Below are positions 1 to 60,750 of a DNA stretch of 64,000 nt, piece after piece (position 1 is the stretch's first letter; the number at the start of each line of letters is the position of its first letter). The DNA lies in the NCBI GenBank assembly GCA_016699795.1, contig CP065011.1:418474-482473 (forward strand), given 5' to 3'. The stretch comes from Candidatus Moraniibacteriota bacterium (GTDB lineage Bacteria; Patescibacteriota; Minisyncoccia; Moranbacterales; GCA-2747515). The translations under genes and the position numbers were made by a program. The notes beneath the pieces are model-generated. The model was given only the letters and a program-made list of their open reading frames with translations, ran no database searches and had not been told where the DNA came from.

Positions 1-240
1 AGAATAAATAAAAGCTACAAGGTTATTATCTTTCATATTTCAATATTAACACACTATTTAATTATAATTTTGAGTGGATAGGGAGAATTTATCGCATCAC
101 TCGTTCGCCGTCATTCATTTACTCCTTACTCGCGGCAACGCCAAATGTTCATCCGCATTTATTGGCATTTGCTGTAAAAAATCTCTACTGAGCTTTTTCT
201 AGCTCACTGCCACCGAGTTCAATTCTCCCTACCACAAAAC

Positions 241-273
241 AAAAAACTCCCCTAATGAATGGGGAGCTTTTTG
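241..273. terminator. Bidirectional rho-independent terminator-like hairpin (ctcccc..ggggag) flanked by A-run and T-run
   Basis: Stem ctcccc 247-252 pairs with ggggag 261-266, followed by ttttt. A poly-A run precedes it, so it can act on either strand. It lies just downstream of the minus-strand HEPN-like gene. Confidence 0.55.
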
Positions 274-343
274 AAATTTTGAGCTGGCTTGTCCATGCGG
301 TTAGGACCGAATTCATGGAAGGAGTCTCCTGTAAATCCCCTGT

Positions 344-748
344 TTAGACCATTAGTTTGAGGATGATGTTGAGACATGGAGTACAGATGCTATTGAAAAT
401 TGCCTCGGCAGTCTCTTCGTCGTTAACCGGATACAACAAGCCATCTATTTCGAACTGGTTCTCGTGGAAATTTGAATGCATATACATGTTTCGATACTCT
501 CGAACCCTATGCAATGTTTCCGCTTCACTCTCAGCAATCAAACTGTCCTTTTTGGCCTTATTGATTATAACATTCAAGGTGTCTTCGTCTTTTGAATCTG
601 TAGCCCACCGCAAAACTTGTTCCAGAAGCATAAATAACGAAGCAATTGCCGGATACCATTTTTCTTCTTTGGCACAGCAATACATCTGAGAGACAATCCA
701 GCCTATGGCGCGATCTTTATTTGCTATATTGTTGATGATGTCATTCAT
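344..748 (-). CDS. Small hypothetical protein, candidate HEPN-domain RNase (R-N-x3-H motif)
   Basis: 134-aa ORF, predicted alpha-helical. 'RNMYMH' matches the HEPN R-[NHQ]-x3-H / Rx4-6H signature. It is the last gene of the co-directional island. Confidence 0.45.
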   Translation of the reverse strand: MNDIINNIANKDRAIGWIVSQMYCCAKEEKWYPAIASLFMLLEQVLRWATDSKDEDTLNVIINKAKKDSLIAESEAETLHRVREYRNMYMHSNFHENQFEIDGLLYPVNDEETAEAIFNSICTPCLNIILKLMV

Positions 749-769
749 TTTAGAAAAGATGCCGCCTTT

Positions 770-1744
770 TTAATTGGGCTTATAAATAAAATATTTCTCC
801 GCTATCTTGTTCCACTTTTTATCATTAAGGACATTCCTGTACGGGTTTTTGATGATTATCGGGTGGTAACCAGTCCGAGCCATTCCATTTCTGTCTACCA
901 AGTAGATAAAGTATTCTCCATTCTTCACTTTAGCAACATCAATTTCATTTCTTGTCCAAAAAAAAGTAGGTTCCCCTATATAGCTTTTAACTTCTATAAA
1001 TCTATCCGGAGTACTTGAAACTACCGATTCAAATGAAACTATGTCATATCCGGCAGAAACATCATAATCGGATATTTTTTCAATTTCTGGACTTTTCTGT
1101 TCGCCCAATCTCAACCTCTCGAACCCTAACACAAAATTTTCCGCCAACTCACCGTTAATCCTGTTTTCTTCAAGCTGTCGATATAAATCTTCTGCCGTCA
1201 ACTTTCTTCTTTTTAGGCTTGGTAGCACAGACGAATCGAAAATATCCCTATATTCACCATTAACAACCAACTTACTGGCATTGATGTCTAAACTAGGAAT
1301 CAAAAAATTGAAATCAATGAGCAATTGCTTGAATTTCGAATATTTCAAACGAAAGGCAGAATTCTTTATCTGTATATTTCTATGAACCACATCGTACGAA
1401 AAATTTTCAGGAATGAATATTTCTTTAAAAGCAGAGTCTTTTTCCAATTCGGAAAACGCTTTTTTCAATATTTTAATACGCAGATACTCTTCGCTTTTTA
1501 AATTTGCCAAAAAGGAATCGCCGATAATTATCGCCCCATTTTTTGCAATATTGATTATGTTGATTGCCTCAAGGAACGGGACACAACCGTCAAATACAGT
1601 CCGGCCATCAATCAGACGGTTACGTAAATATTCATCAATGCCAACAGTATTCCATCTTCCCTTGCGTGCATCAAATTGGTTGAATAATTCCCAAAATAAT
1701 TTCGGAGTACCGAGGTTTTCATATTTACTGAGTTCTTTTAGCAT
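770..1744 (-). CDS. DUF3883-like (restriction-endonuclease-fold, PD-(D/E)xK) domain protein
   Basis: The C-terminal 'DRFIEVKSY...FFWTRNEIDVAKVKNGEYFIYLVD' looks like DUF3883, a domain often fused C-terminally to SNF2 helicases. Its start overlaps the SNF2 gene by 20 nt. Confidence 0.55.
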   Translation of the reverse strand: MLKELSKYENLGTPKLFWELFNQFDARKGRWNTVGIDEYLRNRLIDGRTVFDGCVPFLEAINIINIAKNGAIIIGDSFLANLKSEEYLRIKILKKAFSELEKDSAFKEIFIPENFSYDVVHRNIQIKNSAFRLKYSKFKQLLIDFNFLIPSLDINASKLVVNGEYRDIFDSSVLPSLKRRKLTAEDLYRQLEENRINGELAENFVLGFERLRLGEQKSPEIEKISDYDVSAGYDIVSFESVVSSTPDRFIEVKSYIGEPTFFWTRNEIDVAKVKNGEYFIYLVDRNGMARTGYHPIIIKNPYRNVLNDKKWNKIAEKYFIYKPN

Positions 1745-3698
1745 AATTATCCAATAAAGCTTTGATTAAGTCCGTTTCATCCGAATCATCAATTCTGGAA
1801 AACAGAGGGATATCCTCGTCTATTATTTTTTCCATCCGTTCAACCTTAATGTGGAGTTGCCGATCAATAACCTCGTCAATCGAATCCTCGGATAATATGT
1901 AATAATAATTGGTTTCCTGGTCAGCAGGCAAGCCGACCCGATGTATCCTATCTTTGGACTGTAAGAAATTAGAGCAATTATAATCCCTTTCCATGTATAC
2001 GGCGTTATGACATCCTTTATGCAAAGAGATGGATTCAGCGACGGCGAAAGGATTGGCGATAACTACCCGAAACTCAGTATTGAGTGGGTCATTAAATTTT
2101 TTGATGATATTCTCACGCTCCACCTGCCCCGTCTCCCCGATAAGAAGCTCGGAATTTATTCCTTGTTTAGATAATAAATCCTTAAATTGCTTCGCGTTTT
2201 GCACAAATATGGTCCAAACCAAAATTTTCTCGTTTTGTTTAATCTTTTCCTTCAACAAATCCAATATGCTGGAAAATTTACTCGGTGTCTCCGATTTCAT
2301 ATACAGACTTATTTTTGATAGTATTTCAGAATCATCCTGAAACTCATCCGGCATTTTATTTCCAGAAAAAGTCCTACCGTCAAAATCATCGCTTTCCAGG
2401 GTTTCCTTAATTGGCTTCATGAGTAAAGAGGGGTTGGTCGAGGCTTGCCGCAACCTTATCAATTTAGCCTTATTCAAGATGTCCTTTATGGTTGCCGAGT
2501 TACTTTTTTGGAATGATTTGATGTACTTCGTTTCAATGAAATCATAAATTTTCCTTTGTTCTTTTCCCATTTCTACATGGATAATCGTTTCTTTTACCGG
2601 GGGGAGTTTCAGGTCAGACTTTTTTATTCTAATGAAGTATGGCGATATGTTAGCAGTGAATTTTTTTACTCGCTCGCTGTCAGGCTCGCTATTTTTAGTC
2701 ATATCAACCAGATTGCCATAATGAAATTTTAATATATCTTTGAACTTAAAGGGATATATAAACTGATACAAATTATACAGGTCTTCATATCCGTTTGGAA
2801 CGGGAGTACCCGTTAAAACTACCTTCGACTTTGCTTCTTTCGCGATGTTGATGACGCTCTTGCCCCACACGCCTTCAGGATTTTTTATCCTATGCGCTTC
2901 ATCTACGACCAACATAGTCTTGTGCTTCTTTAAGAAATCGACAATTTCATGCTGTAGGCCGTCAACGCCGCCATGAAATATAAGGGTTATTTCACAGGGA
3001 TTGCCCGAATACAGATGCTGCTCCTTATGGCTTCTTGATATACTGCTATCCCCAGAAAGTCTTTGCACTTGGGCTTTTTTGCCAAAACACTCTTCGTACT
3101 CATTTTCCCAAGGCGCAAAAGCAGACAGGGGGCTGATTACCATAAGCTTATCTACATGCTTAGGATCTTCTTTTGGTAAGTTTTTTAAATATGCGTAGGC
3201 TCCATATACAATTGAGGTTTTGCCGGCACCGGGAACTGCAAAGTTACAAGCATTTTGTGCAAAAGCCATGTGGTACGCCGATAACAATTGCAAGGGGTAT
3301 AGCTTTCTAGTTAATTCCCTTTTAACAACCGACTGAAAGTGATCAAAATCAGAAACAAGTTCCGGATTGTCTTTGAATTCATTGTTCCTTATCTTCCTAG
3401 CTTTTTGTGAAAATACATCGAAGTTCTTCTGCTCACGATGATAACTGTCTACTGATTTTTGAGTCTCATCGGACATGCTCTCCTTTATGCCGAATTTTTC
3501 AAAAAGTTCGTTTATTTCCCCCAACACATCTATTTTTCTCCCATCTTCAAAAGGTACGGACAACAAGTCTTCCTTCAATGCATAGTGCAGTCGCCTAAAA
3601 GAAAACAGAAGCCTCCTGTTGGTCAAGATGCTACTTATGTCACCGCTTATCACATACCTCAAATTTTCCTCATCCAAATGGATTTCGATATTACCCAT
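1725..3698 (-). CDS. SNF2-family (SWI2/SNF2) helicase/ATPase
   Basis: Walker A 'VPGAGKTS', 'VVDEAHRIKN' (DEAH box), 'VLTGTPVPNG' (motif III), C-terminal 'QSKDRIHRVG' (motif VI). The N-terminal ~130 aa have no recognised domain. Confidence 0.85.
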   Translation of the reverse strand: MGNIEIHLDEENLRYVISGDISSILTNRRLLFSFRRLHYALKEDLLSVPFEDGRKIDVLGEINELFEKFGIKESMSDETQKSVDSYHREQKNFDVFSQKARKIRNNEFKDNPELVSDFDHFQSVVKRELTRKLYPLQLLSAYHMAFAQNACNFAVPGAGKTSIVYGAYAYLKNLPKEDPKHVDKLMVISPLSAFAPWENEYEECFGKKAQVQRLSGDSSISRSHKEQHLYSGNPCEITLIFHGGVDGLQHEIVDFLKKHKTMLVVDEAHRIKNPEGVWGKSVINIAKEAKSKVVLTGTPVPNGYEDLYNLYQFIYPFKFKDILKFHYGNLVDMTKNSEPDSERVKKFTANISPYFIRIKKSDLKLPPVKETIIHVEMGKEQRKIYDFIETKYIKSFQKSNSATIKDILNKAKLIRLRQASTNPSLLMKPIKETLESDDFDGRTFSGNKMPDEFQDDSEILSKISLYMKSETPSKFSSILDLLKEKIKQNEKILVWTIFVQNAKQFKDLLSKQGINSELLIGETGQVERENIIKKFNDPLNTEFRVVIANPFAVAESISLHKGCHNAVYMERDYNCSNFLQSKDRIHRVGLPADQETNYYYILSEDSIDEVIDRQLHIKVERMEKIIDEDIPLFSRIDDSDETDLIKALLDNYAKRTQ

Positions 3699-3703
3699 AA
3701 ATA

Positions 3704-5080
3704 TTATCCGCCAAGTTCCTTCTTCATATCAAAAGTAGTTTTGTTTATAAGGGTTACCTTGTCGAGGAGCGATTTCTCCGGTTGCTTTCCCTTTTTATTT
3801 AAGTTTACTTTTGCAAGCAAATAAATGATGTGATCAAGCAAACTTTCAGGAGATGTCTTAATCAACATATCCGTCGTCATTTTGTTCAATTCCAGAACCT
3901 CATTCATGACTTCTGGTTCAGCAAAAGCTTTGTGTTTTTGGTCGATGGACTCAATCGCTCTCTTTGCGGAATTAATGAGCTTGGCCGGCTCATCGGCTGC
4001 TTGGCGATTACGGAGCCATTGGTAATGCGTATCTATGTTTTCATTAAGAAATTTGGCTGATTCTTTGGTAAACTTATCATCCCTTGCATCCAAATGTGCC
4101 TCAAGGTTTTCCGAATCATAATCAATTTTTTCTTCTTCGTCACTTATTGGATCCACATGTTCGAAATGGAAATCCCTGAAATCTTTCCATATCTTTTCAT
4201 CACCGAAAAAGTGACTTTCTTTTCGCCCGTAAGCTATATTCCTAAATTTTTTGCCTTCGTACCTTGCACGGATGTAATCAAAAGAAATCATTTTCAGATC
4301 ATCGACGTCACTGGATTTGTATCCATCAAAAGCGTCCGCACTCCCTCTTGAGACGTTTTCGAATTTTTTTATCCATTTTGTAAGATTTATGAATTGATCC
4401 TCTCTTCCGTCCAATTGGGTATATATTCCATCATATTGCAAGTATTGCAGGTAGTCATCCATTATTTTCATCACCTCCAAATATTCCTTTACAGTAGTTT
4501 CGCTTTCACCCATCCAATTGGCTATTTTGTCCACACTAACCTTCCTTTGATGGAGTCCTTTGGCTTTTAGATATTTTTCAACAGGATTATAACCCAGCTT
4601 TTCATCTTCGCCCATCTGGTACAATGTTTCGAGTTTTTCGATTTCCAAGGGGTCTTCTTCCAATGTGACGGGCAAAACCACTGCCTTAAAATAATCTTTT
4701 TTCAGCTTGTTCAAGAGCATGACTCTTCTGTTCCCATCTATAACTATTCCATCCCGTGTGATGATTCCAACTTTTTCTTGACCATATTTCTCTATACTTT
4801 CTTCAGTTTTCTTATTCCGGTCAGGCTTTGACTCCCAAAGTAATTTTTCGATACGGCGTCTGCCGTCTTCGCTTTCCACATCAATCTCATGCTTCTGGCT
4901 TTCAAGAGATTTTGTTCTGCTCAATATTCGCCCGTTATATTTATTGTAAACCAGGTATGCCAAGGGGATTTTAAACACTGGCATCAATTCCAGTTTCTCC
5001 TTCCAAGGGATTTCCTGCTTACTGAACGGTTCCAGTTTTGATACTTCACCTATCTTTTTAATGCGGTTTTCTTTTTCCAT
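3704..5080 (-). CDS. ParB/sulfiredoxin-like N-terminal domain protein (DGNRR motif) with probable HTH
   Basis: 'GIITRDGIVIDGNRRVMLL' resembles the ParB 'GERRxRA', DndB 'DGQHR' and DUF262 'DGQQR' nucleotide-binding motifs. The downstream 'VSVDKIANWMGESETTVKEYLEV' is HTH-like. The 250-aa C-terminus is unassigned. Confidence 0.55.
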   Translation of the reverse strand: MEKENRIKKIGEVSKLEPFSKQEIPWKEKLELMPVFKIPLAYLVYNKYNGRILSRTKSLESQKHEIDVESEDGRRRIEKLLWESKPDRNKKTEESIEKYGQEKVGIITRDGIVIDGNRRVMLLNKLKKDYFKAVVLPVTLEEDPLEIEKLETLYQMGEDEKLGYNPVEKYLKAKGLHQRKVSVDKIANWMGESETTVKEYLEVMKIMDDYLQYLQYDGIYTQLDGREDQFINLTKWIKKFENVSRGSADAFDGYKSSDVDDLKMISFDYIRARYEGKKFRNIAYGRKESHFFGDEKIWKDFRDFHFEHVDPISDEEEKIDYDSENLEAHLDARDDKFTKESAKFLNENIDTHYQWLRNRQAADEPAKLINSAKRAIESIDQKHKAFAEPEVMNEVLELNKMTTDMLIKTSPESLLDHIIYLLAKVNLNKKGKQPEKSLLDKVTLINKTTFDMKKELGG

Positions 5081-5090
5081 ATGCTTAATA

Positions 5091-6791
5091 TTAATAAACC
5101 AATTTTAATAAACCATACATAGCCATGATTTGGGCGAGAGGAACGGTTTCTTTTGGAAAAAAACCGTTGGTCTCAATGTACTTGAAATAGTTATCATATA
5201 AATTGATTGAGTCTGCCATCCCCTTGACTATCAATACTGGATTATTCTTATTGCTGAGGAATAAGTCATCCTCGTATGCCTTTTGCAAATCCTTTTTTGT
5301 GGCGATGTTTTTTATAGATTTTTTGTACTCATTGGAACAAGACAGATTTTCGTCAAGAATTTTTTCTATAATTGGCAAGCTCTTTTCATCCAATATCTTT
5401 ACCTTATGGTCATCTCCTGTACCGAAAAATACGCCCACATGCCACGATTTGGCGATGCTTTCATCTTTTCTGTCAGGATGATAGTTCATAAGATCAACTG
5501 TCATGTTTCCTAACTTCAATGGATGTCTACGGAAAAGAGCGTTTTTATTTCTTTTGCGCGGATTGTCAAACTTGTTTTCTGTAAATGTATTCAGATTGTT
5601 CACCTTCTTGTAATTTTCAGAAAGTTCCGAAAAATCGATTTTATCGTGACTGATCTCTCCCAATCCCATTTTTTTCCTGATAGTTTTGGCTAATGAATTC
5701 CCCATATGGGGGCAAACGGCGTTTCCTACTTGTTTCCACTTGATACCCTCGGAACCTACAAATTGGTACACATAAGGAAATCCCATAAGACAAGCGATTT
5801 CCCTTATAGTAGGCGCCCTGTATTCCCCGTCGCCCTTCCTGTTGTATTCCGACTTATAAATTAGAGCTTCCCGTGAACTTGCAGACTTTGTAGCTAGTAT
5901 GGTCCTGCTAGGCCTGTCTTCGTTCTCAGGGAATGACATCTTTCCCATAAAAGGATGATTCGTCTTTAAATATTCAGCTTTTTCCCATTCAAGTTTGTAA
6001 ATGCCAGAATCATAAAAGTGATCGGATATCTTTTCTGCCTCCAAAGTTATGCTAGGATAATTAGGATCCGTCCATTTGTTTTTTTTGTTTTTATCATTAG
6101 GCTTTGGTATGTTTTTCTTTATTTCTTGTAATTTGATATTGATCTTTTTCGCGCTTTCAGGTCTTAAGAATTCGTTTGTCTTAACCCATTCGCCTGCCAC
6201 AAACCTTTCCCTGCCTTGCGGAGCGCCAAAGTCCTTTGAGTTGAAAAATCCCCCATTCGTAGTCACCGCTATATCATCAGGTTTTTTACCGATTGTCAAC
6301 GACCATTTACCAAGGTTCAGATCTTTGAAACTGTATTTGATTTTCACGTGTGTTCGAGATTGTGGAACATTTTCCATATACCACGCCTTTAGCGTAGAGT
6401 CAGCCTCGTGTTTTTTCACGGCCACAACCCTCAAATATGCTTCAATCAACCTTATACCATGGGTTTTGTCAGCCTTGCCGGCCTTATTCGACATAGAAAA
6501 CGAAACACAGGACGGACTGCCAATCAATACTTCTGCCGGAGGCAACTTGTTGATTTCAGAAACATCCCCGGAAGATTTACCCCAAAAATCCAGGACGTTT
6601 TTTGTGGTATCTTTTAGGCCGTGATTTAGGTTATGCGTATCGATAGCAGGCTGCCAATTATCAACTCCCATTATCACATCAAATCCTTGCTGTCTGAATC
6701 CTTCGGAGAATCCGCCAGCACCGCAAAAGAAATCAATTACTCTAATCTTTTTGTTTTTCATAATGCAAGATGTATGATTAAATTTATCCAA
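5091..6791 (-). CDS. DNA (cytosine-5)-methyltransferase with ~190-aa C-terminal extension
   Basis: Motif I 'DFFCGAGGFSEGF', motif IV 'GSPSCVSFS' (catalytic Cys), motif VI 'YMENVPQ', motif X-like 'GNAVCPHMGNSLA'. The C-terminal ~190 aa are unassigned. The true start may be the internal Met of 'MKNKKIRVIDFF'. Confidence 0.85.
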   Translation of the reverse strand: MDKFNHTSCIMKNKKIRVIDFFCGAGGFSEGFRQQGFDVIMGVDNWQPAIDTHNLNHGLKDTTKNVLDFWGKSSGDVSEINKLPPAEVLIGSPSCVSFSMSNKAGKADKTHGIRLIEAYLRVVAVKKHEADSTLKAWYMENVPQSRTHVKIKYSFKDLNLGKWSLTIGKKPDDIAVTTNGGFFNSKDFGAPQGRERFVAGEWVKTNEFLRPESAKKINIKLQEIKKNIPKPNDKNKKNKWTDPNYPSITLEAEKISDHFYDSGIYKLEWEKAEYLKTNHPFMGKMSFPENEDRPSRTILATKSASSREALIYKSEYNRKGDGEYRAPTIREIACLMGFPYVYQFVGSEGIKWKQVGNAVCPHMGNSLAKTIRKKMGLGEISHDKIDFSELSENYKKVNNLNTFTENKFDNPRKRNKNALFRRHPLKLGNMTVDLMNYHPDRKDESIAKSWHVGVFFGTGDDHKVKILDEKSLPIIEKILDENLSCSNEYKKSIKNIATKKDLQKAYEDDLFLSNKNNPVLIVKGMADSINLYDNYFKYIETNGFFPKETVPLAQIMAMYGLLKLVY

Positions 6792-7305
6792 AATTAACTG
6801 CGACCTATTCCAATACCAGTCTAACAGTTATTTCATTTTGGATCAACTTTTAAACAACAGCATCGTTTTTTGTCTTTATTTCTTCCTTCATTCTATCGGC
6901 AAAGGACCATAAAGTAAAGGAAAACTGATGTTATAGGGGTCTTTTTGCTTAATAAACCCAACCCATCACAGAAATTGATTAAAAATCAAATAAATCAAAG
7001 TAGAACGAGTTCACAGGATTGGTTAAAAACCAAAAAAACCTTTGAGCAGGTAGCATTTTTTGCTTTACTTAAAACCTTCTTTGAACGGCAAGGTGCCGTA
7101 GAAGTGGTCGTTTAATCAATATTTATCAAATAACTCATACCAGAGATCTGAAAATGCCCTCTTTTCTGAGTTCATTGCTCATCCCTCGGACCCCGATTTC
7201 ATCCTGAGAGCATACTTTGTCATATCAGCCATATGCTTTTATGGCTTTTGCTTTTCCGTGCGACTCTGGATGTCTGGTGATTCGAGAAGCAAAAAACTGC
7301 ATAAT

Positions 7306-7716
7306 TTATCCGATGACGAATGGGCTTAGGATTTTTATGTGCTCCGATTGCAGATATCGGTAACTGTATCCGTTTTTCATTTTCCAAGATTTGCTATTTT
7401 TTATTGACCTGATAAATTTTTTCAGAATTTTGTCATGGTTGTATAGATACCACCCATCGTTCTTCTTGTCGTGAAAACAAATGAATATCTTTTTTCCCAG
7501 GTATTTCTTTTCAAAAGTTAGCCGTCCCTTAAGCTGAACCTTGAGATATTTTTCCCCGTCAAAGCTAATAGCAATAAAATCTGCACCCATCCAGTCGTCA
7601 GAAAGTTTAACGGTCGTATATCCATATTCGGCGAAGATGGCCGAGGCTTTTTGAAAGTTATATATTTCTTTCTGCCTAGCATTGAGATCGCTATATTTTA
7701 TTTTTTCCTTCAACAT
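7306..7716 (-). CDS. Hypothetical protein (possible nuclease-like fold, unassigned)
   Basis: 136-aa ORF. 'DFIAISFDGEKYLKVQLKGR' is weakly PD-(D/E)xK-like. No firm assignment. Confidence 0.35.
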   Translation of the reverse strand: MLKEKIKYSDLNARQKEIYNFQKASAIFAEYGYTTVKLSDDWMGADFIAISFDGEKYLKVQLKGRLTFEKKYLGKKIFICFHDKKNDGWYLYNHDKILKKFIRSIKNSKSWKMKNGYSYRYLQSEHIKILSPFVIG

Positions 7717-7963
7717 AAAAGCGACCTAAATCGATTAGATCGCCGAGAAGTTTCCGCTTGAGTGGACGACCCGGCGGAACTCACAGTCAAGAGAACACCA
7801 AGTGCCTCTATTGTGTGCACCGAATCGCCCGCTAAAAGGCGCAATAGAGACAAGCATGGCTTGTTTTCTTGATGTTTATTTGACTGTGAGTTCTATTATA
7901 AAATACACCCAAACAAAGCGTAATGCAACTTGCGAATTGTCCTGTTTATGAGAGAATGGGTGC

Positions 7964-8938
7964 ATGGAAAATCAATCGGTAAAAATCGTATTCAATGAAT
8001 TTCAAACTGATCTGCTGATAGGTTTTTTTAGCGACCTTGAAAAACTCAGATTTAAGAATCAGAACAATAGAACGGTTAGCATAAACCCAAATAAACACGA
8101 CGGCAGCTGGGTTTTTGACATGGATCCTTACGTACCCGCCATCAATGAGGCTTTCTCTCAAAATTTAGGAAAAATAAAGTATTTTGACCGACTAATTGAA
8201 GGGTTCAGCTCTTCCAATCTTTATCCGATTGTTAAAAGCAAAGACTCAATAACCGATTGCATAGAAAAACTTTCCCAAAAATACGGGCTGACAAAAATAC
8301 CCCTAATCTACACCACCGTTTTATTTCCATCCAAAGACAACCTTCCCGCCTTGGTCTGGGCTGAATTGTCTAGCATTGGATGTTTTGAAGAAAAATATTT
8401 TGGACATATCGATTTTATAAACGCCGTCTTGGAATTAAAAAAAGAAAAAAATATTGAAATAAAAGGTTTTGAAATAATGAATTTAGACGGGGCGGGTTTC
8501 ACATTTAAAATTATCTTGGCGCTAAAAAAAGAATTGGGAACCCACTCAGAAAATAAATTGTCTGACGCATATGAAATTTCGATCAAAGACAGGGAGATTT
8601 GGATTAATAACACATACCTTATCGGCAAACCTCACGGAGCTGGCAGCAACATGGAATTTTTCAGTTTTTTATTTGAACACCCAAATAAGTTTTTTAGAAA
8701 AAGTGAACTACCAGATGGAATTAAAAATGAAATAAAATCAAAAAAATTCTCAAAAATATTAAACAGTTTGGGTTTTAAAGGTGAAATATTAAAGGCATTC
8801 TTTCCGAAGAGAAGCACTAAGACGGGGTTATTGTTCAATAAAGTAATTTCCGATAAGGATATTGAAGAAAGAGGCATTAAAAAAGAAATATTTTTGAGGG
8901 AATTGGAGTTAGCTAACATAAGGAATAATCCAAAATAG
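7964..8938 (+). CDS. Hypothetical protein
   Basis: 324-aa ORF preceded by a structured intergenic region. No recognisable motifs. Confidence 0.5.
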   Translation: MENQSVKIVFNEFQTDLLIGFFSDLEKLRFKNQNNRTVSINPNKHDGSWVFDMDPYVPAINEAFSQNLGKIKYFDRLIEGFSSSNLYPIVKSKDSITDCIEKLSQKYGLTKIPLIYTTVLFPSKDNLPALVWAELSSIGCFEEKYFGHIDFINAVLELKKEKNIEIKGFEIMNLDGAGFTFKIILALKKELGTHSENKLSDAYEISIKDREIWINNTYLIGKPHGAGSNMEFFSFLFEHPNKFFRKSELPDGIKNEIKSKKFSKILNSLGFKGEILKAFFPKRSTKTGLLFNKVISDKDIEERGIKKEIFLRELELANIRNNPK

Positions 8939-8992
8939 TTCCATTTAGTTCCATATTCCATAAAAATTTTCGGAAAGAGTCATACTGCAAGT

Positions 8993-9565
8993 ATGATTTT
9001 TTTATTTTCAAAAAAATATTCCGACCAAGAACTTCTTGAAATTTTCCCTGAAGCCAAAACGATAATACCCGAAAAGATTTCAGAATGGCAGGAGGAGTAT
9101 GACAAATTGGCAAATGAGATTAAGGGATTTTTGACCGCCGTCTATGAGCGTTGCCCCGAAAAGGATGTGTGGTTCTGGGAAATAGTCGCGGAAAAACTGA
9201 TGATTCCCGACCTGCTGAAAATAGAGAATCACATCTTACGCCTAAAAAGGCAACAGATAATTGCAAAGGGCAAAAGCAACAGACGCCAAGAAAATTACGA
9301 AAAGTTCCAAGAGAAAATTATACTTGCTCGATCCTATCCAATCTACGAACTGGCGCGTGACAAACTCGATCTCAAACCGTCTGGGAAAAACTTTGTGGCG
9401 TTGTGTCCCTTCCACAATGAAAAAACTCCCAGCTGCTATTTCTACACAGAGACCAATACCTTTGTATGTTTCGGATGCGGAGAAAAGAGCGACATTATAA
9501 AATTTACAATGCATTTTTACGGAGTCGGATTCCGAGACGCCGTAGAGATGCTTCAAGCAAGATGA
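8993..9565 (+). CDS. CHC2 zinc-finger (DnaG-type primase Zn-binding domain) protein
   Basis: 'CPFHNEKTPSCYFYTETNTFVCFGCGEKSDIIKF' matches the C-x-H...C-x2-C primase zinc finger. Its stop TGA overlaps the next ATG (ATGA). Confidence 0.6.
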   Translation: MIFLFSKKYSDQELLEIFPEAKTIIPEKISEWQEEYDKLANEIKGFLTAVYERCPEKDVWFWEIVAEKLMIPDLLKIENHILRLKRQQIIAKGKSNRRQENYEKFQEKIILARSYPIYELARDKLDLKPSGKNFVALCPFHNEKTPSCYFYTETNTFVCFGCGEKSDIIKFTMHFYGVGFRDAVEMLQAR

Positions 9566-10917
9566 GTGGTAAAGCAAATAACAAATTAAACGAGATAAAA
9601 AACAATATGGAGAAAGAAAAAAATGTGTCGCACGACGCCAAGAAACAACAGTCTAGGGAGAATGAACGATTCGCAAAATTGATCCCAGAGGTACCGACTG
9701 ACATAGCACTCTGGCGAGAAGTTATCACGGAAAATTTTCCCGAATTGATACTTCCGGCCGAAGTAGGCTTAAGCATAATCGCCCAACTGCTGATAGGCGA
9801 TATCAAAAATCCGTTTGCCCTCGTCTATGTGGATGTTCCATCTTCTGGAAAAACCGTCGTTTTGAATTTCTTTTCCACCGCCAAAGAACTGGCATTTACG
9901 ACTGACAATTTCACCCCGGCGTCGTTTGTATCTCAAGCCGCAAAAAAGAAAAAGGAGGAACTGGCCGAAATCGACATGTTGCCACAGATCAGGTACAAGA
10001 CATTGATTATCCGGGATCTTGCCCCCGTATTTAGCAAGAAAGACGAAAATGTCCAAGAAATGCTCGGGATATTAATCAGAGTTCTGGACGGAGAAGGTCT
10101 GGAAACAAGCGGTGGCATACACGGCAAGCGCGGATATACCGGAGACTACCTGTTTATGTTGCTTTCTGCCTCTACCCCAATCCGCCCTAGGATATGGAAA
10201 GCTATGGGGAACCTGGGGTCGCGTTTGTTTTTCGTCAATATCGGAGGCGCCGAGAAAAGCGAAACCGCCCTAGCAAACCAGTTAAAGAAGCCTTGCCGGG
10301 AAAAAGAAATTTTATGCCGGGAAGTTACTGAAAACTTTGCAAAAACTTTGTGGAGCAAATATCCCGACGGAGTCCTTTGGGATATGGAAAAAGACGAGCA
10401 GAGCTTGTTGGAAATCATTGCTCGTCTTGCCAAAATACTGGCACGCCTCAGAAGTTCTATCAATGTTTGGAAAGACAGCAACGAATCCAAAAAGTATGAC
10501 CACACTCAACCGATTACAGAAATGCCAGACAGGCTGAATCAGCTCCTTTACAATTTGGCTAGAGGTCATGCCATTGTTTGTGGCCGAGAAAATATCACCA
10601 AGGAAGATCTTAGCATCGTAATGCGAGTTGCGCTTGATTCTGCTCCACCCAACCGAGCAAGAGTGTTTAAGAATCTCATAAAATCATCGGGTGTGCTTGC
10701 AACAAACCAAGTCATGGATATTCTCAAATGTTCCCGTCCAACAGCGCTGAAAGAAATGGAGCAACTTGTTATCCTGGGAATTGTCGAACCGTCTGAAGAT
10801 TTGGCTGAAGCAAGCAGTTTGCATTTCACAGGCAGACCGGAAAGCGAGATCGCGCTCAAAGAAGAATTCAAATGGTTTCTGACCAATGAATGCCATTTAT
10901 TGATACATAGGAGCTAA
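9562..10917 (+). CDS. P-loop NTPase, primase-associated/replicative helicase-like protein of a mobile element
   Basis: Walker A 'DVPSSGKTVV', Walker B-like 'LIIRDLAP', C-terminal winged-helix-like segment. Start moved to the ATG at 9562, which overlaps the upstream stop (translational coupling). The longer ORF from 9466 overlaps the previous gene. Confidence 0.5.
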   Translation: MSGKANNKLNEIKNNMEKEKNVSHDAKKQQSRENERFAKLIPEVPTDIALWREVITENFPELILPAEVGLSIIAQLLIGDIKNPFALVYVDVPSSGKTVVLNFFSTAKELAFTTDNFTPASFVSQAAKKKKEELAEIDMLPQIRYKTLIIRDLAPVFSKKDENVQEMLGILIRVLDGEGLETSGGIHGKRGYTGDYLFMLLSASTPIRPRIWKAMGNLGSRLFFVNIGGAEKSETALANQLKKPCREKEILCREVTENFAKTLWSKYPDGVLWDMEKDEQSLLEIIARLAKILARLRSSINVWKDSNESKKYDHTQPITEMPDRLNQLLYNLARGHAIVCGRENITKEDLSIVMRVALDSAPPNRARVFKNLIKSSGVLATNQVMDILKCSRPTALKEMEQLVILGIVEPSEDLAEASSLHFTGRPESEIALKEEFKWFLTNECHLLIHRS

Positions 10918-10966
10918 AAGGGTTTATAAACCAAATTTACCCCTATGTTATAAACCGATAATTACT

Positions 10967-11128
10967 ATGATTACCGAATCAGACGCTAAAAAATTTCAGG
11001 AACTATACGAAAAAGAAACCGGAAAGAAAATCTCTCTCAAGGAGGCTTTTGAACTGGCAGAAAATTTGGTGGACATGGTTCGGCTTATCTACAAGCCCAT
11101 TAAAAAGAAGGACCGCAAAGATTGTTAG
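10967..11128 (+). CDS. Small ORF (53 aa), hypothetical
   Basis: Read manually; 'MITESDAKKFQELYEKETGKKISLKEAFELAENLVDMVRLIYKPIKKKDRKDC'. It sits between the helicase-like gene and the recombinase. Below the 60-aa cut-off of the ORF track. Confidence 0.25.
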   Translation: MITESDAKKFQELYEKETGKKISLKEAFELAENLVDMVRLIYKPIKKKDRKDC

Positions 11129-11187
11129 AATTTTCAATGTCGCTATACAATCTGCATAGACAGTAACGTGCACAAATTGAAACCATT

Positions 11188-12795
11188 ATGGAGGCCAAAA
11201 TAAAGTATCTAATGTATCTTCGCAAAAGCACCGATAGCGAAGATCGCCAGATACAATCAATCGAAGATCAACGCAAGGAACTGGAACGCATCGCCAGACA
11301 TCTTAAACTTGAAATTAAGGGAGTTTACCATGAAAACAAATCCGCCAAGAAGCCTGGGCGGGAGGAATTTAACAAGATGCTTAAAGAGATAAGACGAGGC
11401 AAGGCCGGCGGAATTCTTTGTTGGAAAATTAACCGCCTAACCAGAAATCCGATAGACAGCGGCGAAATCCAATACATGCTGCAGCTTGGACTGATACAGT
11501 CGATCCAAACGCCGGGCAGAGAATACAAAACGACTGACAATGTATTGATGATGTCGGTCGAGACGGGAATGGCCAACCAGTACATCATTGACCTGGGCAG
11601 GGATGTTAAGCGCGGCATGGCTTCCAAAGCCGAGAAAGGTTGGCGGCCAGGACTCGTGCCGATTGGATACAAGAACGACAAGGCGGGAGAACAAGGAAGC
11701 AAAGTCATCCACGTCGATGAAGAACGCTTCCCGATTGTCCGCCAGATGTGGGATCTTATGTTGACTGGCGATTATTCGGTTTCCAAGATTGTTGACATTG
11801 CCAACAACGAGTGGGGTTTGAGAAAACCCACGCGCAATATAGACATGAAGCTCCACGAAAGCCACGGGTACAAAATTTTCACGAACCATTTTTATTACGG
11901 GGAATATGAGTGGGTCGGCAAGACATATCAAGGCAAGCACACGCCAATGATAACGCGAGCTGAATTTGATTATGTCCAGAAGCTCCTGGGGATCAAATGC
12001 AAATCACAGACACGCCACAAAAACCTTCCTTACCGTGGCACAATCCGCTGTGGCGAGTGCGGATGCTCTATCACGACCGAGCAGAAAATAAAAAGAATCA
12101 AATCCAAGAATATCATCAAGACTTTTGTTTACCACCACTGCACCAAAAAGAAATTGGACACCGATTGCCGACAGAAACCCGTATCTTTCGAAGAAATCAA
12201 CAGACAAGTCATGGAAGAGCTGGACAAAATAACCTTGCCCGAGAGTTTTCTGGCTTTTGCTTTGAAGATTTTGAACCGGGACAATGAACTTGAGGTCGAC
12301 AATCGCAACATCATGGTTAAAAACCAGCAGAAAGCCCTGAAAGACTGCCAGAACAAGATTGATAACCTGCTGAAAATCTATATTTCACTCAACAACTCCG
12401 ACAAGGATCTGATAAGCGACGAGGAATTCAAGGGCCAGAAGTCGTCCTTGCTTAAAGAGAAGGCCGGGATCGAACAGAATTTGAACAATCTACGCCAACG
12501 AGCAGACGAATGGTTAGAACTGACCGAAAAAACTTTCACATTCGCTGTCTACGCAAAACATAATTTCGCTGAGGGAGATTACGAAACCAAGACCAGGATA
12601 TTGCGTGCCTTAGGTTCGGACTGCGTCTTGAAAGACAGAAAGGTCCATATTACCTTGCGCAAACAATATCAGATCATCAAAGAAGGCACGGAAATGATAA
12701 AGGCTCAAAACCCAGGGTTAGAACTGAATGATTTTGCTTTATCTGAAACAAAAACAGCCCAATATGGGGCCGTTTCTGATGTCTTGAGCGGGTGA
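11188..12795 (+). CDS. Large serine recombinase (resolvase/invertase-type N-terminal catalytic domain, recombinase domain, zinc ribbon)
   Basis: 'YLRKSTDSEDRQ' is the Y-x-R-x-S-T...Q catalytic serine motif. 'CGECGCSIT' is a zinc ribbon. 535 aa. Its last 9 nt overlap the 3' end of tRNA-Gly. Confidence 0.85.
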   Translation: MEAKIKYLMYLRKSTDSEDRQIQSIEDQRKELERIARHLKLEIKGVYHENKSAKKPGREEFNKMLKEIRRGKAGGILCWKINRLTRNPIDSGEIQYMLQLGLIQSIQTPGREYKTTDNVLMMSVETGMANQYIIDLGRDVKRGMASKAEKGWRPGLVPIGYKNDKAGEQGSKVIHVDEERFPIVRQMWDLMLTGDYSVSKIVDIANNEWGLRKPTRNIDMKLHESHGYKIFTNHFYYGEYEWVGKTYQGKHTPMITRAEFDYVQKLLGIKCKSQTRHKNLPYRGTIRCGECGCSITTEQKIKRIKSKNIIKTFVYHHCTKKKLDTDCRQKPVSFEEINRQVMEELDKITLPESFLAFALKILNRDNELEVDNRNIMVKNQQKALKDCQNKIDNLLKIYISLNNSDKDLISDEEFKGQKSSLLKEKAGIEQNLNNLRQRADEWLELTEKTFTFAVYAKHNFAEGDYETKTRILRALGSDCVLKDRKVHITLRKQYQIIKEGTEMIKAQNPGLELNDFALSETKTAQYGAVSDVLSG

Positions 12796-12859
12796 GCGGA
12801 ATCGAACCGCCGTCCTTAGCTTGGAAGGCTAATATAATAAACCATTATACGACACCCGC
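12787..12859 (-). tRNA. tRNA-Gly (anticodon UCC), no encoded CCA
   Basis: Manual fold: acceptor GCGGGTG/CACCCGC, anticodon stem TTAGC/GCTAA with loop CTTCCAA, T-arm GGCGG-TTCGATT-CCGCT. The weak D-stem is AT-rich. Confidence 0.75.
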
Positions 12860-12910
12860 GGAGGTACTTTTTAAGGAAACATCTCCAGTGTATCAAATCG
12901 ACAAAAAAAA

Positions 12911-13645
12911 TCAACTCCGTGCTGATCCAAAATTATCAAAAAACATACGGTCCTTAGAAATTCCCATGTTTTCAAGATTATTTTTCATAACTTGTATAAA
13001 ATTTGCACCCGCAGCAATGAAGTATTGTGTTTCTGGTGTATCTTCTATAAATCCCCTAAGAAAATTTTCATCAATATATTCTCTTCTTCCATTCCAAAGA
13101 GAAGTCGAGTGCTCCATGTCTGTCATAGTATTGATTACTTTAATATGAGAATACTGTTGAGAGAGTGATTCTATCCATTGAAATTCAGGAGTTGCTTCAG
13201 GTGTGCGATTGGAATTTATAAGTAAGCAAGGAATAATTTCTTCTTTCTTGATAATATGTCGGAGTATACTTCTCATTGGAGAATATCCCACACCAGCACA
13301 AATAAAAACAAGATTTTGTACATTTTCCCCCATATTTGAAAGGGAACAATTTCCCATAGGATCAGAAATTTCCAAAGAATCCCCCAGGGACATTTTGTGA
13401 ATATTCTTTTTGAAACCACTTTCACTTTGGCGCATCAAAAAACTTAATTCCTCTTCATAAGGCGCACTCGCAAAAGAAAAAGTTCTTACATTTCCTCGTG
13501 CGTCTGGATATATATCCAATTCTTTGTTAAAACGCAAAACCGCATATTGTCCAGCCTCAAATGAATATTTCTCAGGTCGAGAAAAAGTGTAAATAAAAGT
13601 GTTTTCAGCAATTTCTTCTTTTTTTTGAAAATTAATACTTTGCAT
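12911..13645 (-). CDS. Ferredoxin-NADP reductase-like FAD/NAD(P)-binding oxidoreductase
   Basis: 'RTFSFAS' (RxYS FAD-binding) and 'VFICAGVGYSPMRS' (GxGxxP NAD-binding). 244 aa. Confidence 0.65.
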   Translation of the reverse strand: MQSINFQKKEEIAENTFIYTFSRPEKYSFEAGQYAVLRFNKELDIYPDARGNVRTFSFASAPYEEELSFLMRQSESGFKKNIHKMSLGDSLEISDPMGNCSLSNMGENVQNLVFICAGVGYSPMRSILRHIIKKEEIIPCLLINSNRTPEATPEFQWIESLSQQYSHIKVINTMTDMEHSTSLWNGRREYIDENFLRGFIEDTPETQYFIAAGANFIQVMKNNLENMGISKDRMFFDNFGSARS

Positions 13646-39019: not shown

Positions 39020-39375
39020 CCGCCGAATTTCCAAAAACCCCCAGTCCGAAACCCGCCCGCATTCCTCCCCAGACCCCTCCTGCGGGCGGGAAATTCAGTC
39101 GAGGTTTTGCCAAATCCTTTCCCCCAGAAAATAGTTTTGGCAAAACCGAGTCCGCATTTCGTCCCGCCACACTGCCCGAATACTTGGAGGGCAGAACCCC
39201 GAAAGAAAAACACCCTTTCCTTTTTCAAAAGAAAATTCACCCCCGCCAAATCAGAAATGCAAGGAGTGTTTTTTCTTTCGGGGTTGCCGAGGCTCTGCGA
39301 GGCGGTGGCGGGGCGATTCATTCCTCATCGGGATTGGTTTCAAAAAAGGTTCGAATTTTGTACAATGAATACCGC
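39017..39375. repeat. Right copy of perfect ~359-bp inverted repeat
   Basis: Reverse-complement identical to 35587-35945 over the whole length compared. Confidence 0.85.
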
Positions 39376-39399
39376 TATAGAGTTTTTTCCAATATGGGA

Positions 39400-39690
39400 T
39401 TAATTTCCCGTATTGGAGAAAATATTGTGAAAAATCAAAGGGATTCGAACGGGTAGGAGCGAGTCCTCGAGTATCGATGGATGCGAATAAATGAGCATTC
39501 AGCGCTACCCAGGACAACGAACTCCCATTTTGGGAGTGAGGCGAAAATCCCACTCTGGGCAGTGAACGAAGTGAATGAGGAAGAGAAAGAAAGCAAAGAG
39601 TTTTGCTTTCTTTGGAATGAGAAGGGACTTGCGAAGCGACAAAAGTCACCGAAAGTCCCCGGCCCGAAGGGGAATCTCTCTCTTACTTAA
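39400..39690. other. GC-rich structured non-coding arm of the tRNA-Ser element
   Basis: No credible ORF. Contains 'GGGATTCGAACGGG', reminiscent of the tmRNA tRNA-like domain, and a 'GAAAGTCCCCGGCCCGAAGGGG' hairpin. Related sequence recurs in the mini-element after tRNA-Pro(CGG). Confidence 0.35.
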
Positions 39691-39727
39691 AAAAAACTCT
39701 CATGCCCTAATTCATGAGAGTTTTTTA
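39689..39727. terminator. Bidirectional terminator (ctctcatg...catgagag with A8/T7 flanks)
   Basis: 8-bp stem with an A-run before and a T-run after. It lies downstream of the minus-strand gene 39755-41947 and at the right edge of the tRNA-Ser element. Confidence 0.6.
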
Positions 39728-39754
39728 TTTCCTATACTTTCGAAGTAGAATTAT

Positions 39755-59789: not shown

Positions 59790-59874
59790 GCCCAGGTGGC
59801 GGAACCCGGTATACGCGCTAGCTTGAGGTGCTAGTTCTCGCAAGGGATTGGAGGTTCAAATCCTCTCCTGGGCA
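59790..59874 (+). tRNA. tRNA-Leu (anticodon GAG), long variable arm
   Basis: Acceptor GCCCAGG/CCTGGGC, anticodon stem CTAGC/GCTAG with loop TTGAGGT, T-arm GGAGG-TTCAAAT-CCTCT. Confidence 0.75.
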
Positions 59875-60033
59875 CACCAAGGAAGTACGTCAACTACTTG
59901 ACGTATGTGAGGATTTGAAAGCCGGAGCGATGTGCGAAGCACCGCGAGGCGGGGTCGAAAGATTTTCTTTGAAAAAAGAAAATACTTGTGACCAAATCCT
60001 CTCCTGGGCACACCAAGGAAGTATGTAAGGAGA
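59875..60033 (+). mobile_element. Miniature element inserted at tRNA-Leu(GAG) 3' end: 115-nt insert bounded by perfect 31-nt direct repeat
   Basis: 'caaatcctctcctgggcacaccaaggaagta' at 59857-59887 recurs at 60003-60033. The intervening 'gaaagccggagcgatgtgcgaagcaccgcgaggcggggtcgaaagatttt...gaaaatacttgtgac' is shared with the element after tRNA-Val. Confidence 0.5.
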
Positions 60034-60113
60034 GATTGAAAGTCAAAGCGTTGTGTGCAAAAGATATAAAGGTTGATCCGGAAGAGAAAAGGAGTATACT
60101 ATAAAATATATAT

Positions 60114-60187
60114 GCGTGCTTAGCTCAGTTGGCTAGAGCATCTCGTTTACACCGAGAGGGTCAGGGGTTCGAGTCCCTTAGCACGCA
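60114..60187 (+). tRNA. tRNA-Val (anticodon UAC)
   Basis: Acceptor GCGTGCT/AGCACGC, D-arm GCTC/GAGC, anticodon stem TCTCG/CGAGA with loop TTTACAC, T-arm AGGGG-TTCGAGT-CCCTT. Confidence 0.85.
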
Positions 60188-60376
60188 CAACAAACATCGT
60201 GAGTTTTGTGTGTTATGTACGCCAACTGCTTGGCGTACATAGGGACGAGAAAGCCGGAGTAAAGTGTGAGTTTTCCCTGAATCTTCGAAGGGAAAGGCAA
60301 ACACCACGAGGCGGGGTCGAAAGATTTTTCCGTCAGGAAAAATACTTGTGACCGAGTCTCTCGATAAGTACACAAT
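60188..60376 (+). mobile_element. Miniature tRNA-Val 3'-end-associated element with degenerate tRNA 3'-end copy
   Basis: The internal 'gaaagccggagtaaagtgtga...accacgaggcggggtcgaaagatttttcc...gaaaaatacttgtgacc' is homologous to the tRNA-Leu mini-element. The terminal 'gagtctctcgataagtacacaat' resembles the tRNA-Val 3' end 'gagtcccttagcacgcacaac'. Confidence 0.35.
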
Positions 60377-60566
60377 TTTTATCAATCATAAAAAATCGCC
60401 TTAAAGCGGTTTTTATTTTTGACCATTAAAAAATAAACAGGAGATTCTCCCCTTCTATCGCTTCGCACGTGCCTTTGACACAGACTACGCATCTCCTCCA
60501 GAGCCGGGGTTTTCAAAACGTGAAGCAGTTCACGTTTTGAAATACCCTTCGATTCCCCTCGTTTTT

Positions 60567-60680: not shown

Positions 60681-60750
60681 CACTCTCGCATCTTTATTTA
60701 TTTTTTGAAAAATACCCTCAGACAGCATATCCCGAAAATTTCCTCTTCAG

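Follow-up and report, generated by a model that had tools for sequence, protein, structure and literature searches.

The window analyzed here is a 64,000-nucleotide (nt) stretch of a Candidatus Moraniibacteriota genome, and all coordinates refer to it. Near its left end, an intact tRNA-Gly(UCC) gene on the minus strand (12786-12859; called by ARAGORN, 61.8 bits with Rfam) faces the convergent gene of a large serine recombinase (LSR; 11188-12795, plus strand), which encodes 535 amino acids (aa) in the present, integrated arrangement and whose last codons, AGC GGG TGA, lie inside the tRNA gene. Upstream of the recombinase stands a group of conserved core genes and, still further left, a run of five cargo genes on the minus strand. 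The original prediction had read this region as an integrative element at tRNA-Gly that carries defence genes, a replication-type module and an LSR, and that reading holds, in that the same core recurs at other tRNA-Gly genes together with different cargo. Judged from its sequence and from that of its relatives, the region from 281 to 12,789 is very probably one complete integrative element, inserted at tRNA-Gly by the LSR.

The tRNA-Gly target and the element junctions

The LSR carries the Resolvase (PF00239), Recombinase (PF07508) and Zn_ribbon_recom (PF13408) domains in Pfam and matches the PHROG integrase with an E value of 2e-60. It is the only recombinase that Pfam, PHROG and further profile scans found among the element proteins, and these scans returned no tyrosine-family integrase. 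Orthologues that are 63-76% identical, and mostly also 535 aa long, occur in Moranbacteria, Parcubacteria and other Patescibacteria, and 28 family members all keep the catalytic-motif residues R12, K13, S14 and T15. The structurally solved LSRs are very distant, with matches restricted to the catalytic domain (E about 1e-8). As had been described, the stop codon of the 535-aa protein falls within the 3' end of the convergent tRNA-Gly; the TGA at 12793-12795 lies in the acceptor stem, and gene and tRNA overlap by 10 nt.

The left end of the element emerges from comparison with related loci fetched from other genomes (numbered with the prefix L). The first 330 nt of the window are homologous to L006:2229-2509, and when the left junctions of the window, L006, L008, L009, L010 and L011 are aligned, each consists of a locus-specific terminator hairpin, a few nt, the tetranucleotide GAGC and then a conserved arm that reads TGG(C/G)TAGTnnATnCGGTTAGAAC. 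Conservation is thus present to the right of GAGC and absent to its left. In the window, the left attachment (att) site, attL, occupies 281-316 on the plus strand, with the GAGC core at 281-284 followed by the element-derived P' arm at 285-316, TGGCTTGTCCATGCGGTTAGGACCGAATTCAT. A profile of the P' arm searched with nhmmer finds a single site in the window (281-317, E 8e-9) and also matches the expected left ends of L006, L008, L009, L010, L011 and L049, with a second site in L006. At the right-hand end, the attR core GAGC (12786-12789) makes up the final 4 nt of the tRNA gene, corresponding to tRNA positions 71-74, and the 3' part of the tRNA serves as the B' arm. Because the GAGC of the left junction is also the last four nt of the tRNA at the right junction, we place the element at 281-12,789, with 12,505 bp between the two GAGC cores. 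Related elements are 8.4-11.5 kb in length. In the window, one pair of att-type junctions encloses both the cargo and the core, and the contigs of L009 and L010 end within about 50 nt of attL.

The sequence common to attL and attR amounts to only 4-7 nt, GAGC included. The original prediction had sought the left att site outside the window and had named a direct repeat of the tRNA 3' end as the mark by which to recognize it. Neither expectation was borne out. The site lies inside the window, and a copy of the tRNA-Gly 3' end (24 nt, at most 3 mismatches) is absent elsewhere in the window and likewise in L001 and L004, just as repeats of the tRNA end of at least 13 nt occur in none of 58 related loci. 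A tRNA-end repeat is the wrong test because the recombinase is of the serine type, and the absence of a long repeat is indeed what an LSR would lead one to expect. The common cores of serine integrases can be as short as 3 bp (PMC9262239). From the two junctions, the substrates of integration may be rebuilt as ...GGGGCCGTTTCTGATGTCTTGAGCTGGCTTGTCCATGCGGTTAGGACC... for attP and ...GGGGAGCTTTTTGAAATTTTGAGCGGGTGAGCGGAATCGAACC... for attB, with a predicted attP junction of CAATATGGGGCCGTTTCTGATGTCTTGAGCTGGCTTGTCCATGCGGTTAGGACCGAATTC and a predicted attB junction of AACTCCCCTAATGAATGGGGAGCTTTTTGAAATTTTGAGCGGGTGAGCGGAATCGAACCGCC. The window also contains an unoccupied tRNA-Gly(GCC) gene, at 60617, which displays the layout predicted for attB, namely a hairpin, about 10 nt, GAGC and TCGAAC at +13. 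Its neighborhood (L19, tRNA-Leu/Val, AhpC, SOD, RNR) is the one in which L006, L007, L009 and L011 have an occupied tRNA-Gly(GCC). Three IMG/VR matches to the attP pattern were set aside, as they show no LSR homology and their number is about that expected by chance on a rough estimate from the length of the pattern.

The arms on the two sides of the crossover differ in the register of their motifs. TCGAAC stands at +13 after GAGC in 10 of 10 tRNA-side (B') arms, and TAG(A/G)AC stands at +18 in all eight element-side (P') arms. In the model of the LI integrase, the motif bound by the zinc-ribbon domain lies 5 bp further inward in attB than in attP (PMC3783163), and the offset between our aligned right-hand arms (+13 versus +18) matches that published 5-bp shift. 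Two direct copies of a 9-nt motif, GGTTAGRAC, are also present in the rebuilt attP (window 12725-12745 and 297-305). The first is in the recombinase coding region, about 70 nt to the left of the core, and encodes LEL; the second lies 16 nt right of the core and encodes VRT. Both copies are kept across the family.

Transcription termination at the tRNA gene also appears to be organized around the junctions. Just outside the element, a bidirectional hairpin with T/A runs (240-273, minus strand) forms the B arm of attL and is taken here as the displaced host terminator of tRNA-Gly; a terminator scan gives it 13 pairs on the minus strand, and RNA folding gives it -19.9 kcal/mol. Equivalent hairpins with very different sequences stand left of GAGC in L006, L008, L009, L010 and L011. 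Inside the element, a second hairpin followed by a U-run (12749-12778, minus strand) lies within the last 20 codons of the LSR gene and is a candidate element-borne terminator for tRNA-Gly. In ten loci this hairpin is found 7-9 nt downstream of the tRNA, with folding energies of -16.6 to -22.5 kcal/mol, and among these loci the sequence of the stem varies with pairing kept. From this arrangement, we infer that the 12749-12778 hairpin would terminate the tRNA transcript after integration.

The recombinase reading frame through attP

In the rebuilt attP, the LSR open reading frame (ORF) continues in frame for 12-19 further codons in five elements (window, L006, L008, L009 and L011), giving proteins of 547-554 aa as against 532-535 aa in the integrated state (554 versus 535 in the window). 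In the excised circle, the gene would be completed by the codons at 285-347 on the plus strand; they encode the tail WLVHAVRTEFMEGVSCKSPV and end with the stop codon TAG at 345-347. Eight P' arms encode the pattern S-W-[LV]-V-[HND]-x-V-R-T-x-F. Their variable sites are distributed 5/4/9 over codon positions 1/2/3, and the synonymous/non-synonymous codon differences are 71/105 in the LSR frame versus 27/126 and 5/143 in the other two frames. The P' arm appears, on this substitution pattern, to be constrained as protein as well as DNA. Since attP lies inside the LSR frame, integration would change the C-terminus of the enzyme, with the tail swapped for a glycine and a stop codon taken from the tRNA. 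The tails finish in ...CKSPV, ...TATFNH, ...REKYLI and similar sequences and are not ssrA-like.

The same junction anatomy extends well beyond the window. In all close loci that were fetched, the LSR gene finishes 10-12 nt inside a convergent tRNA-Gly gene, mostly that of the GCC isoacceptor, and close homologues sit at three different tRNA-Gly isoacceptor genes. A survey of the wider LSR clade in species-representative genomes and metagenomes yielded 120 loci from many phyla, not de-replicated, with LSR identities of 31-76%. A convergent gene for a tRNA or a transfer-messenger RNA (tmRNA) stands at the LSR 3' end in 73 of the 101 loci with enough right flank, and in 72 of those 73 the LSR ORF reads into the RNA gene. 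The tRNA targets in the clade include those for Asn, His, Gly, Gln, Trp, Asp, Met, Arg and others. Serine enzymes have been stated not to use tRNA genes (PMC4383910, PMC9262239), and a systematic LSR survey makes no mention of tRNA. We advance only tentatively, as a generalization whose chances we put at somewhat below even, that a phylum-spanning LSR clade (Patescibacteria, Peribacteria, Omnitrophota, Margulisiibacteriota, Bacteroidota and proteobacterial metagenome-assembled genomes, MAGs) uses tRNA and tmRNA 3' ends as att sites; that an LSR frame running through attP swaps a conserved tail for tRNA codons and may thereby act as a sensor of the integration state that could set directionality or stability; that a small partner protein takes part; and that the tRNA-Gly subfamily supplies a replacement terminator.

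One locus of the clade has an unusual arrangement. In the Peribacteria MAG locus L016, a second, frameshifted LSR gene (8-1500) is found about 8.5 kb upstream of the intact one, and between the two LSR genes lie a LexA-like and a SAVED gene that are 33-36% identical to the cargo of L004. This arrangement suggests tandem or decayed elements and a possible sharing of cargo across phyla.

Core genes, cargo and composition

The core has a recurring order in other Moranbacteria loci, in which a minus-strand gene for a 136-aa protein is followed by a structured intergenic element, a gene for a protein of about 290 aa, a zinc-ribbon gene, a helicase-type gene, a small ORF and the LSR gene. In the window, the 136-aa protein is encoded at 7306-7716 (minus strand), and its orthologues are 64-72% identical and occupy the same position in L004, L007 and L010. 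It has only a sub-threshold match to DUF4365, and no family, solved structure or fold match was returned for it. The divergent intergenic region next to it contains a structured element of about 117 nt (7777-7893, plus strand) that folds into two nested helices with 26-nt outer arms and is present at the equivalent place in all six close elements. Compensatory changes affect 16 of its 40 predicted pairs, and 94.4% of the cells of the alignment are paired; this level of covariation was reached by none of 500 shuffles, and slid controls gave 0-5. Conserved G-U pairs point to the plus strand, and Rfam reported nothing beyond tRNA in 1-13,000 or in 38.8-40.3 kb. The structured element is a candidate for an origin or single-strand initiation signal, or else for a regulatory RNA. 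The next gene (7964-8938, plus strand) encodes a 324-aa protein of which only the C-terminal part of about 125 aa is conserved. Its homologues cover about 40% of the query, the AlphaFold2 model is confident for residues 200-324 only, and no family, solved structure or significant fold match was obtained.

The two following genes make up the module that had been described as a CHC2 primase and a P-loop helicase joined by ATGA coupling. The coupling is as described, the two genes sharing the ATGA at 9562-9565, and both a zinc ribbon and a helicase are present; the description of the first as a primase goes too far, as no TOPRIM domain and hence no catalytic primase domain accompanies the zinc ribbon. 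This protein (8993-9565, plus strand; 190 aa) is of the CHC2 (DnaG-type) zinc-ribbon kind, with a PF01807 match (E 5e-22) confined to residues 112-188 and a TIGR01391 match limited to model positions 12-87. Given that its zinc ribbon stands without the TOPRIM catalytic domain, the element encodes no recognizable catalytic primase. The protein of the coupled gene (9562-10917, plus strand; 451 aa, with a C-terminal winged helix) has no family match in Pfam, PHROG and further profile scans and is predicted from its modeled fold to be an MCM-like AAA+ helicase. Its AlphaFold2 model reaches a predicted local distance difference test (pLDDT) score of 81.5 and a predicted template modeling (pTM) score of 0.83, and in Foldseek the top 50 matches in the PDB are all MCM subunits (E 1.5e-7 to 7e-6; template modeling (TM) score about 0.43-0.45). 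The Walker A motif PSSGKT is invariant, and the protein is 100% identical to the Candidatus Moraniibacteriota protein IPN70_02080. In many homologues, a Toprim or Prim-Pol domain is fused to the N-terminus, so that the 451-aa protein corresponds to the helicase portion of a primase-helicase. The position of the MCM-like helicase is occupied by an AAA_25 protein in L008 and L009.

Immediately upstream of the LSR gene lies a small conserved gene (10967-11128, plus strand) for a 53-aa protein (MITESDAKKFQ...IYKPIKK). It is a complete ORF in 8 of 10 close related loci, the remaining two, L006 and L010, being matched by profile search, and of about 115 LSR loci across phyla, roughly 75 have it on the strand of the LSR gene and upstream of that gene. 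Searches of Pfam and PHROG gave no family for it. We propose it as a candidate LSR partner or recombination directionality factor.

The five cargo genes occupy the minus strand between attL and the core. From the left, they encode a DUF4145 protein (344-748; 134 aa; PF13643, E 8e-5, at the curated threshold); a NOV_C (DUF3883-type) nuclease-like protein (770-1744; 324 aa; PF13020, E 3e-12) with PADLOC matches to PD-T4-1, PDC-S36 and the TmtA C-terminus (E 2e-11 to 1e-9); a SNF2-family helicase (1725-3698; 657 aa; SNF2-rel_dom, E 4e-30, plus Helicase_C in Pfam) with ZorD, DpdE and DrmD-like matches in PADLOC; a ParB-N-like protein (3704-5080; 458 aa) with weak PHROG ParB-like matches over residues 88-205 (E 1e-4 to 3e-3), no Pfam match above threshold and no PADLOC match; and a C5 cytosine DNA methyltransferase (Dcm; 5091-6791; 566 aa; PF00145, E 1e-32) with a C-terminal extension of about 190 aa, which matches MTase_II (E 6e-41) and also DruM/DrmMII in PADLOC. 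PADLOC finds no complete named anti-phage system in the cargo, and a literature search returned nothing specific on it. We treat the five genes, from their domain content, as a presumptive methylation-linked defence-type operon of an unclassified kind, carried as a passenger. Between the operon and the core lies a non-coding spacer of 514 nt (6792-7305) that is likely to be the site of cargo exchange and the cargo promoter.

Six relatives likewise hold variable cargo between attL and the conserved core. The cargo comprises SEC-C/DUF4238 and helix-turn-helix (HTH) plus M78 proteins in L001 and L007; SAVED, a LexA-like protein and Dcm in L003 and L004; and Dcm with an EcoRV-like enzyme in L006. 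Both the right-hand chromosomal neighbors and the genes on the left differ among related loci. That the DNA is accessory, as had been proposed, is supported by these relatives, which have the same core in other neighborhoods and with different cargo. The further claim, that the sequence is richer in guanine plus cytosine (GC) up to 12,795, was made by eye and stands in part when computed: only 8,990-12,795 is clearly rich. The GC content is 38.3% in 1-7800, 34.6% in 7800-8990, 43.9% in 8990-12795 and 35.6% in the rest of the window, and host stretches such as 25-40 kb reach 38.2%. Within the element, only the replication/integration module, in windows spanning 9-13 kb, is an outlier in both composition and tetranucleotide usage. 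The core in the window is richer in GC, whereas the L004 element is poorer in GC than its host. A composition that departs from the host in both directions fits horizontally moving DNA.

Mechanism, alternatives and significance

The anatomy of the junctions points to a mechanism in which the LSR would have recombined the attP of a circular form with an attB at the boundary between the tRNA-Gly 3' end and its intrinsic terminator, with strand exchange presumably taking place within the 4-nt GAGC core. Such an event would leave the tRNA whole, move its old terminator 12.5 kb away to attL and put the hairpin in the 3' end of the LSR gene in the terminator's place. Once excised, the circle may depend for its maintenance or amplification on the MCM-like helicase and the zinc-ribbon protein, with the structured element at 7777-7893 as their site of action, and the 53-aa protein may assist or direct recombination. 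The excised form would make a 554-aa LSR with the conserved tail (WLVHAVRTEF...) and the integrated form a 535-aa enzyme ending in glycine, so that the tail swap could couple the activity or stability of the LSR to the integration state.

Several points weigh against the view that 281-12,789 is one complete and mobile element. Neither an excised circle, nor an attP junction, nor an empty attB in the same species was seen; there are no circular contigs and no terminal overlaps in any locus, and the element family has no members in IMG/VR. The element proteins include no catalytic primase or polymerase and no identifiable excisionase, and since these were not identified, we only infer autonomous replication and excision. 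The left-hand half-sites (B and P arms) are alike in register and lack the 5-bp shift seen on the right, and the GC contents of cargo and core are 38.3% and 43.9%. Finally, a non-coding module of about 170 nt (69-237) lies just left of the attL hairpin and begins with a tRNA-Gly-like 3' end. It is common to L006 (2244-2414) and L008 (1-50), which are inserted at other tRNA-Gly genes, and a simple host flank does not explain it.

This module is the starting point for an alternative in which the element obeys the classical scheme of a displaced tRNA fragment, its true left end being the tRNA-Gly-like stretch at 72-90 or a site further left, beyond the window, with the 69-280 module belonging to the element or to a larger composite island. 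The module does start with GAGT, followed by about 17 nt that look like the 3' end of a tRNA-Gly and that in L006 match that locus's own tRNA at 18 of 20 positions; its positions 2-39 weakly match the tRNA-Gly of L004 (E 0.46); and it is common to the window and L006 in spite of their different tRNA-Gly isoacceptor targets. However, the window module agrees with its own tRNA end at only about 11 of 21 positions by eye, L011 has no module, the conserved, protein-coding-like P' arm begins at 285 and not at 91, and the recombinase is a serine and not a tyrosine enzyme. Moreover, in L006 a separate mini-insert of 0.84 kb has the tRNA-like end of the module as its right-hand target, which means that the module acts like a second attB and not like an element end. 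We consider this alternative very unlikely, and marginally less likely still is the idea that two elements lie side by side, a defence island (about 340-7,300) abutting a 5.5-kb integration/replication element. The two parts do have unlike GC contents (38.3% and 43.9%) and tetranucleotide distances, lie on opposite strands with the 514-nt non-coding spacer between them, and the cargo is unrelated among relatives. Yet the window has a single attL-type site, to the left of the cargo; neither an att-like site inside the element nor a second recombinase was found; the six relatives also hold variable cargo between attL and core; and the difference in composition fits cargo swapping inside one element.

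The element might also be a fixed, immobile remnant of an ancient insertion with a retained or domesticated recombinase. Circular or empty forms were not seen, the LSR length of 535 aa is highly conserved across Moranbacteria, and Pfam and PHROG identified no excisionase or transfer genes, all of which would suit such a remnant. Against it, the core genes are all intact and the tail codons of the excised form show a coding-type substitution pattern; homologues occupy three tRNA-Gly isoacceptor genes in varied neighborhoods and with varied cargo; the tRNA-Gly(GCC) that is empty in the window is filled in relatives; and contigs break at element ends. A remnant is thus unlikely. Less probable than a remnant, and to be regarded with considerable doubt, is a prophage remnant or a satellite resembling the phage-inducible chromosomal islands (PICI-like) that needs packaging by a helper phage. 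A length of about 8-12 kb, an integrase with a primase/helicase-type module and a position beside a tRNA gene recall satellites and PICI-like tycheposons (bioRxiv 10.1101/2020.12.28.424599), but no capsid, terminase, portal or packaging-redirection genes were found in the element with Pfam and PHROGs, and IMG/VR contains no relatives of the family. Pfam and PHROGs detected no genes for virion structure or packaging, the PHROG matches being to primase, integrase and ParB-like proteins only, and the ten main proteins contain no relaxase or type IV secretion system (T4SS) domains in Pfam (oriT was not searched for). By its gene content, the element is neither a prophage nor conjugative.

The reading of 281-12,789 as one LSR-borne element places it beside several known systems. 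With other LSR elements (those of the phage A118/LI, Bxb1 and phiC31 integrases and the SCCmec Ccr enzymes), it shares the Resolvase/Recombinase/zinc-ribbon architecture, a minimal core (4-7 nt here) without long duplication, an integrase gene at the element end beside att and the 5-bp half-site shift between attB-type and attP-type arms, seen here in the right-hand arms. It differs from them in that its target is a tRNA 3' boundary instead of a protein-coding gene and in that attP lies inside the integrase frame. Islander-type islands in tRNA genes are alike in abutting a functional tRNA, in having the integrase gene adjacent to it and in carrying defence-type cargo. They use a tyrosine integrase, whereas a serine enzyme is at work here; the crossover here falls in the final 4 nt of the tRNA and leaves no duplicated tRNA fragment, and the element replaces the terminator and not the 3' half of the tRNA. 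In the tycheposon study of Prochlorococcus, 27 of 937 integrative elements carry an LSR (bioRxiv 10.1101/2020.12.28.424599). Tycheposons and cryptic elements of Prochlorococcus resemble the present element in organization only: they are small and associated with tRNA genes, and they combine a site-specific integrase and a primase/helicase-type module with variable cargo for adaptation or defence. They belong to another phylum, and the present element has an MCM-like helicase and lacks a catalytic primase.

The splitting of a coding sequence by attP has a precedent in the mycobacteriophages BPs and Brujita, in which attP lies within the repressor gene's 3' end, the target is a tRNA and the integrase is of the tyrosine family (Broussard et al. 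2013, summarized in PMC9262239). Integration there replaces the C-terminus of the repressor, the host supplies the stop codon, and the lost tail is an ssrA-like degradation tag (PMC9262239). The present element shares with them an attP located within a coding sequence beside a tRNA target, and a protein C-terminus that changes on integration. In contrast to these phages, the split gene is that of the serine integrase itself, and the tail, SW[LV]V.xVRTxF, is not ssrA-like. With respect to replication, MCM-like helicases of mobile elements are known as fusions to a primase-polymerase, for example BcMCM of a Bacillus cereus prophage. The 451-aa protein has the same AAA+ MCM-like fold, and many of its homologues have a Prim-Pol or Toprim N-terminus; unlike the BcMCM type, it stands alone and is coupled to a zinc-ribbon protein only.

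The element is a genuine and complete LSR-borne defence island; it is of an ordinary kind, but its target, the design of its junctions and its host lineage are unusual. To our knowledge, very few mobile elements have been delimited in Patescibacteria, and the base-level map given here, which covers both junctions, their arms and candidates for the origin and the directionality factor, can serve as a reference for this group. The 3' ends of tRNA genes are a niche usually credited to tyrosine integrases. The present element indicates that serine recombinases can exploit these conserved ends as well, by way of the tRNA/terminator boundary and a terminator supplied by the element. Should the state-dependent C-terminus prove functional, it would give a serine integrase a new means of detecting its own integration. 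A natural attB that consists of a near-universal tRNA sequence could help engineering where landing pads are lacking, including in uncultivated lineages. The variable cargo indicates that elements of this small kind pass restriction-modification and other defence genes between bacteria whose genomes are very small.

The module left of attL merits description in its own right. It starts with GAG(T/C) and the tRNA-Gly-like 3' end, has a 15-bp closing stem and a fold z score of -5.7, and lies between an upstream TATAAT (62-67) and the bidirectional terminator downstream. Rfam has no match to it. The tRNA-like stretch at 72-90 matches poorly and stands outside the P' arm, unlike a displaced tRNA fragment. 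The module may have arisen as a tRNA-Gly copy that has since decayed, or it may serve as a decoy attB or encode a small RNA. A decayed recombinase 3' end was considered for 69-280 and rejected, only the hairpin part matching weakly. L006:2244, with an 18/24 match to the tRNA, had been taken as attL and was likewise dismissed; it is really the start of the conserved module, with the P' arm 210 nt further right. The L006 mini-insert mentioned above (1410-2248) contains only genes for an HTH_17 (excisionase-type) protein and a Fic/Doc toxin and is bounded by its own hairpin-GAGC-P' arm on the left and by GAGC plus a tRNA-Gly-like end on the right. From these boundaries, it looks like a hitcher without a recombinase that may use the same att logic.

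Elsewhere in the window, 39020-39750 comprises about 700 nt free of ORFs, with about 45% GC, in which neither Rfam nor ARAGORN called anything. A portion on the minus strand (39464-39520) is similar to the 69-237 module (E 1.5e-5), and the stretch is possibly a structured RNA gene. Between AhpC and ribosomal protein L19, 55000-59200 has a very low GC content (25-30%) and is a tetranucleotide outlier; relatives have a pseudouridine synthase gene there, and the stretch may be another inserted island. Lastly, the tRNA block Gly(GCC)-Met-Phe (59790-60922) is inverted with respect to tRNA-Val/Leu and L19 when compared with L006, L007, L009 and L011, and one end of the inversion coincides with the tRNA-Gly 3' end, that is, with the att position.

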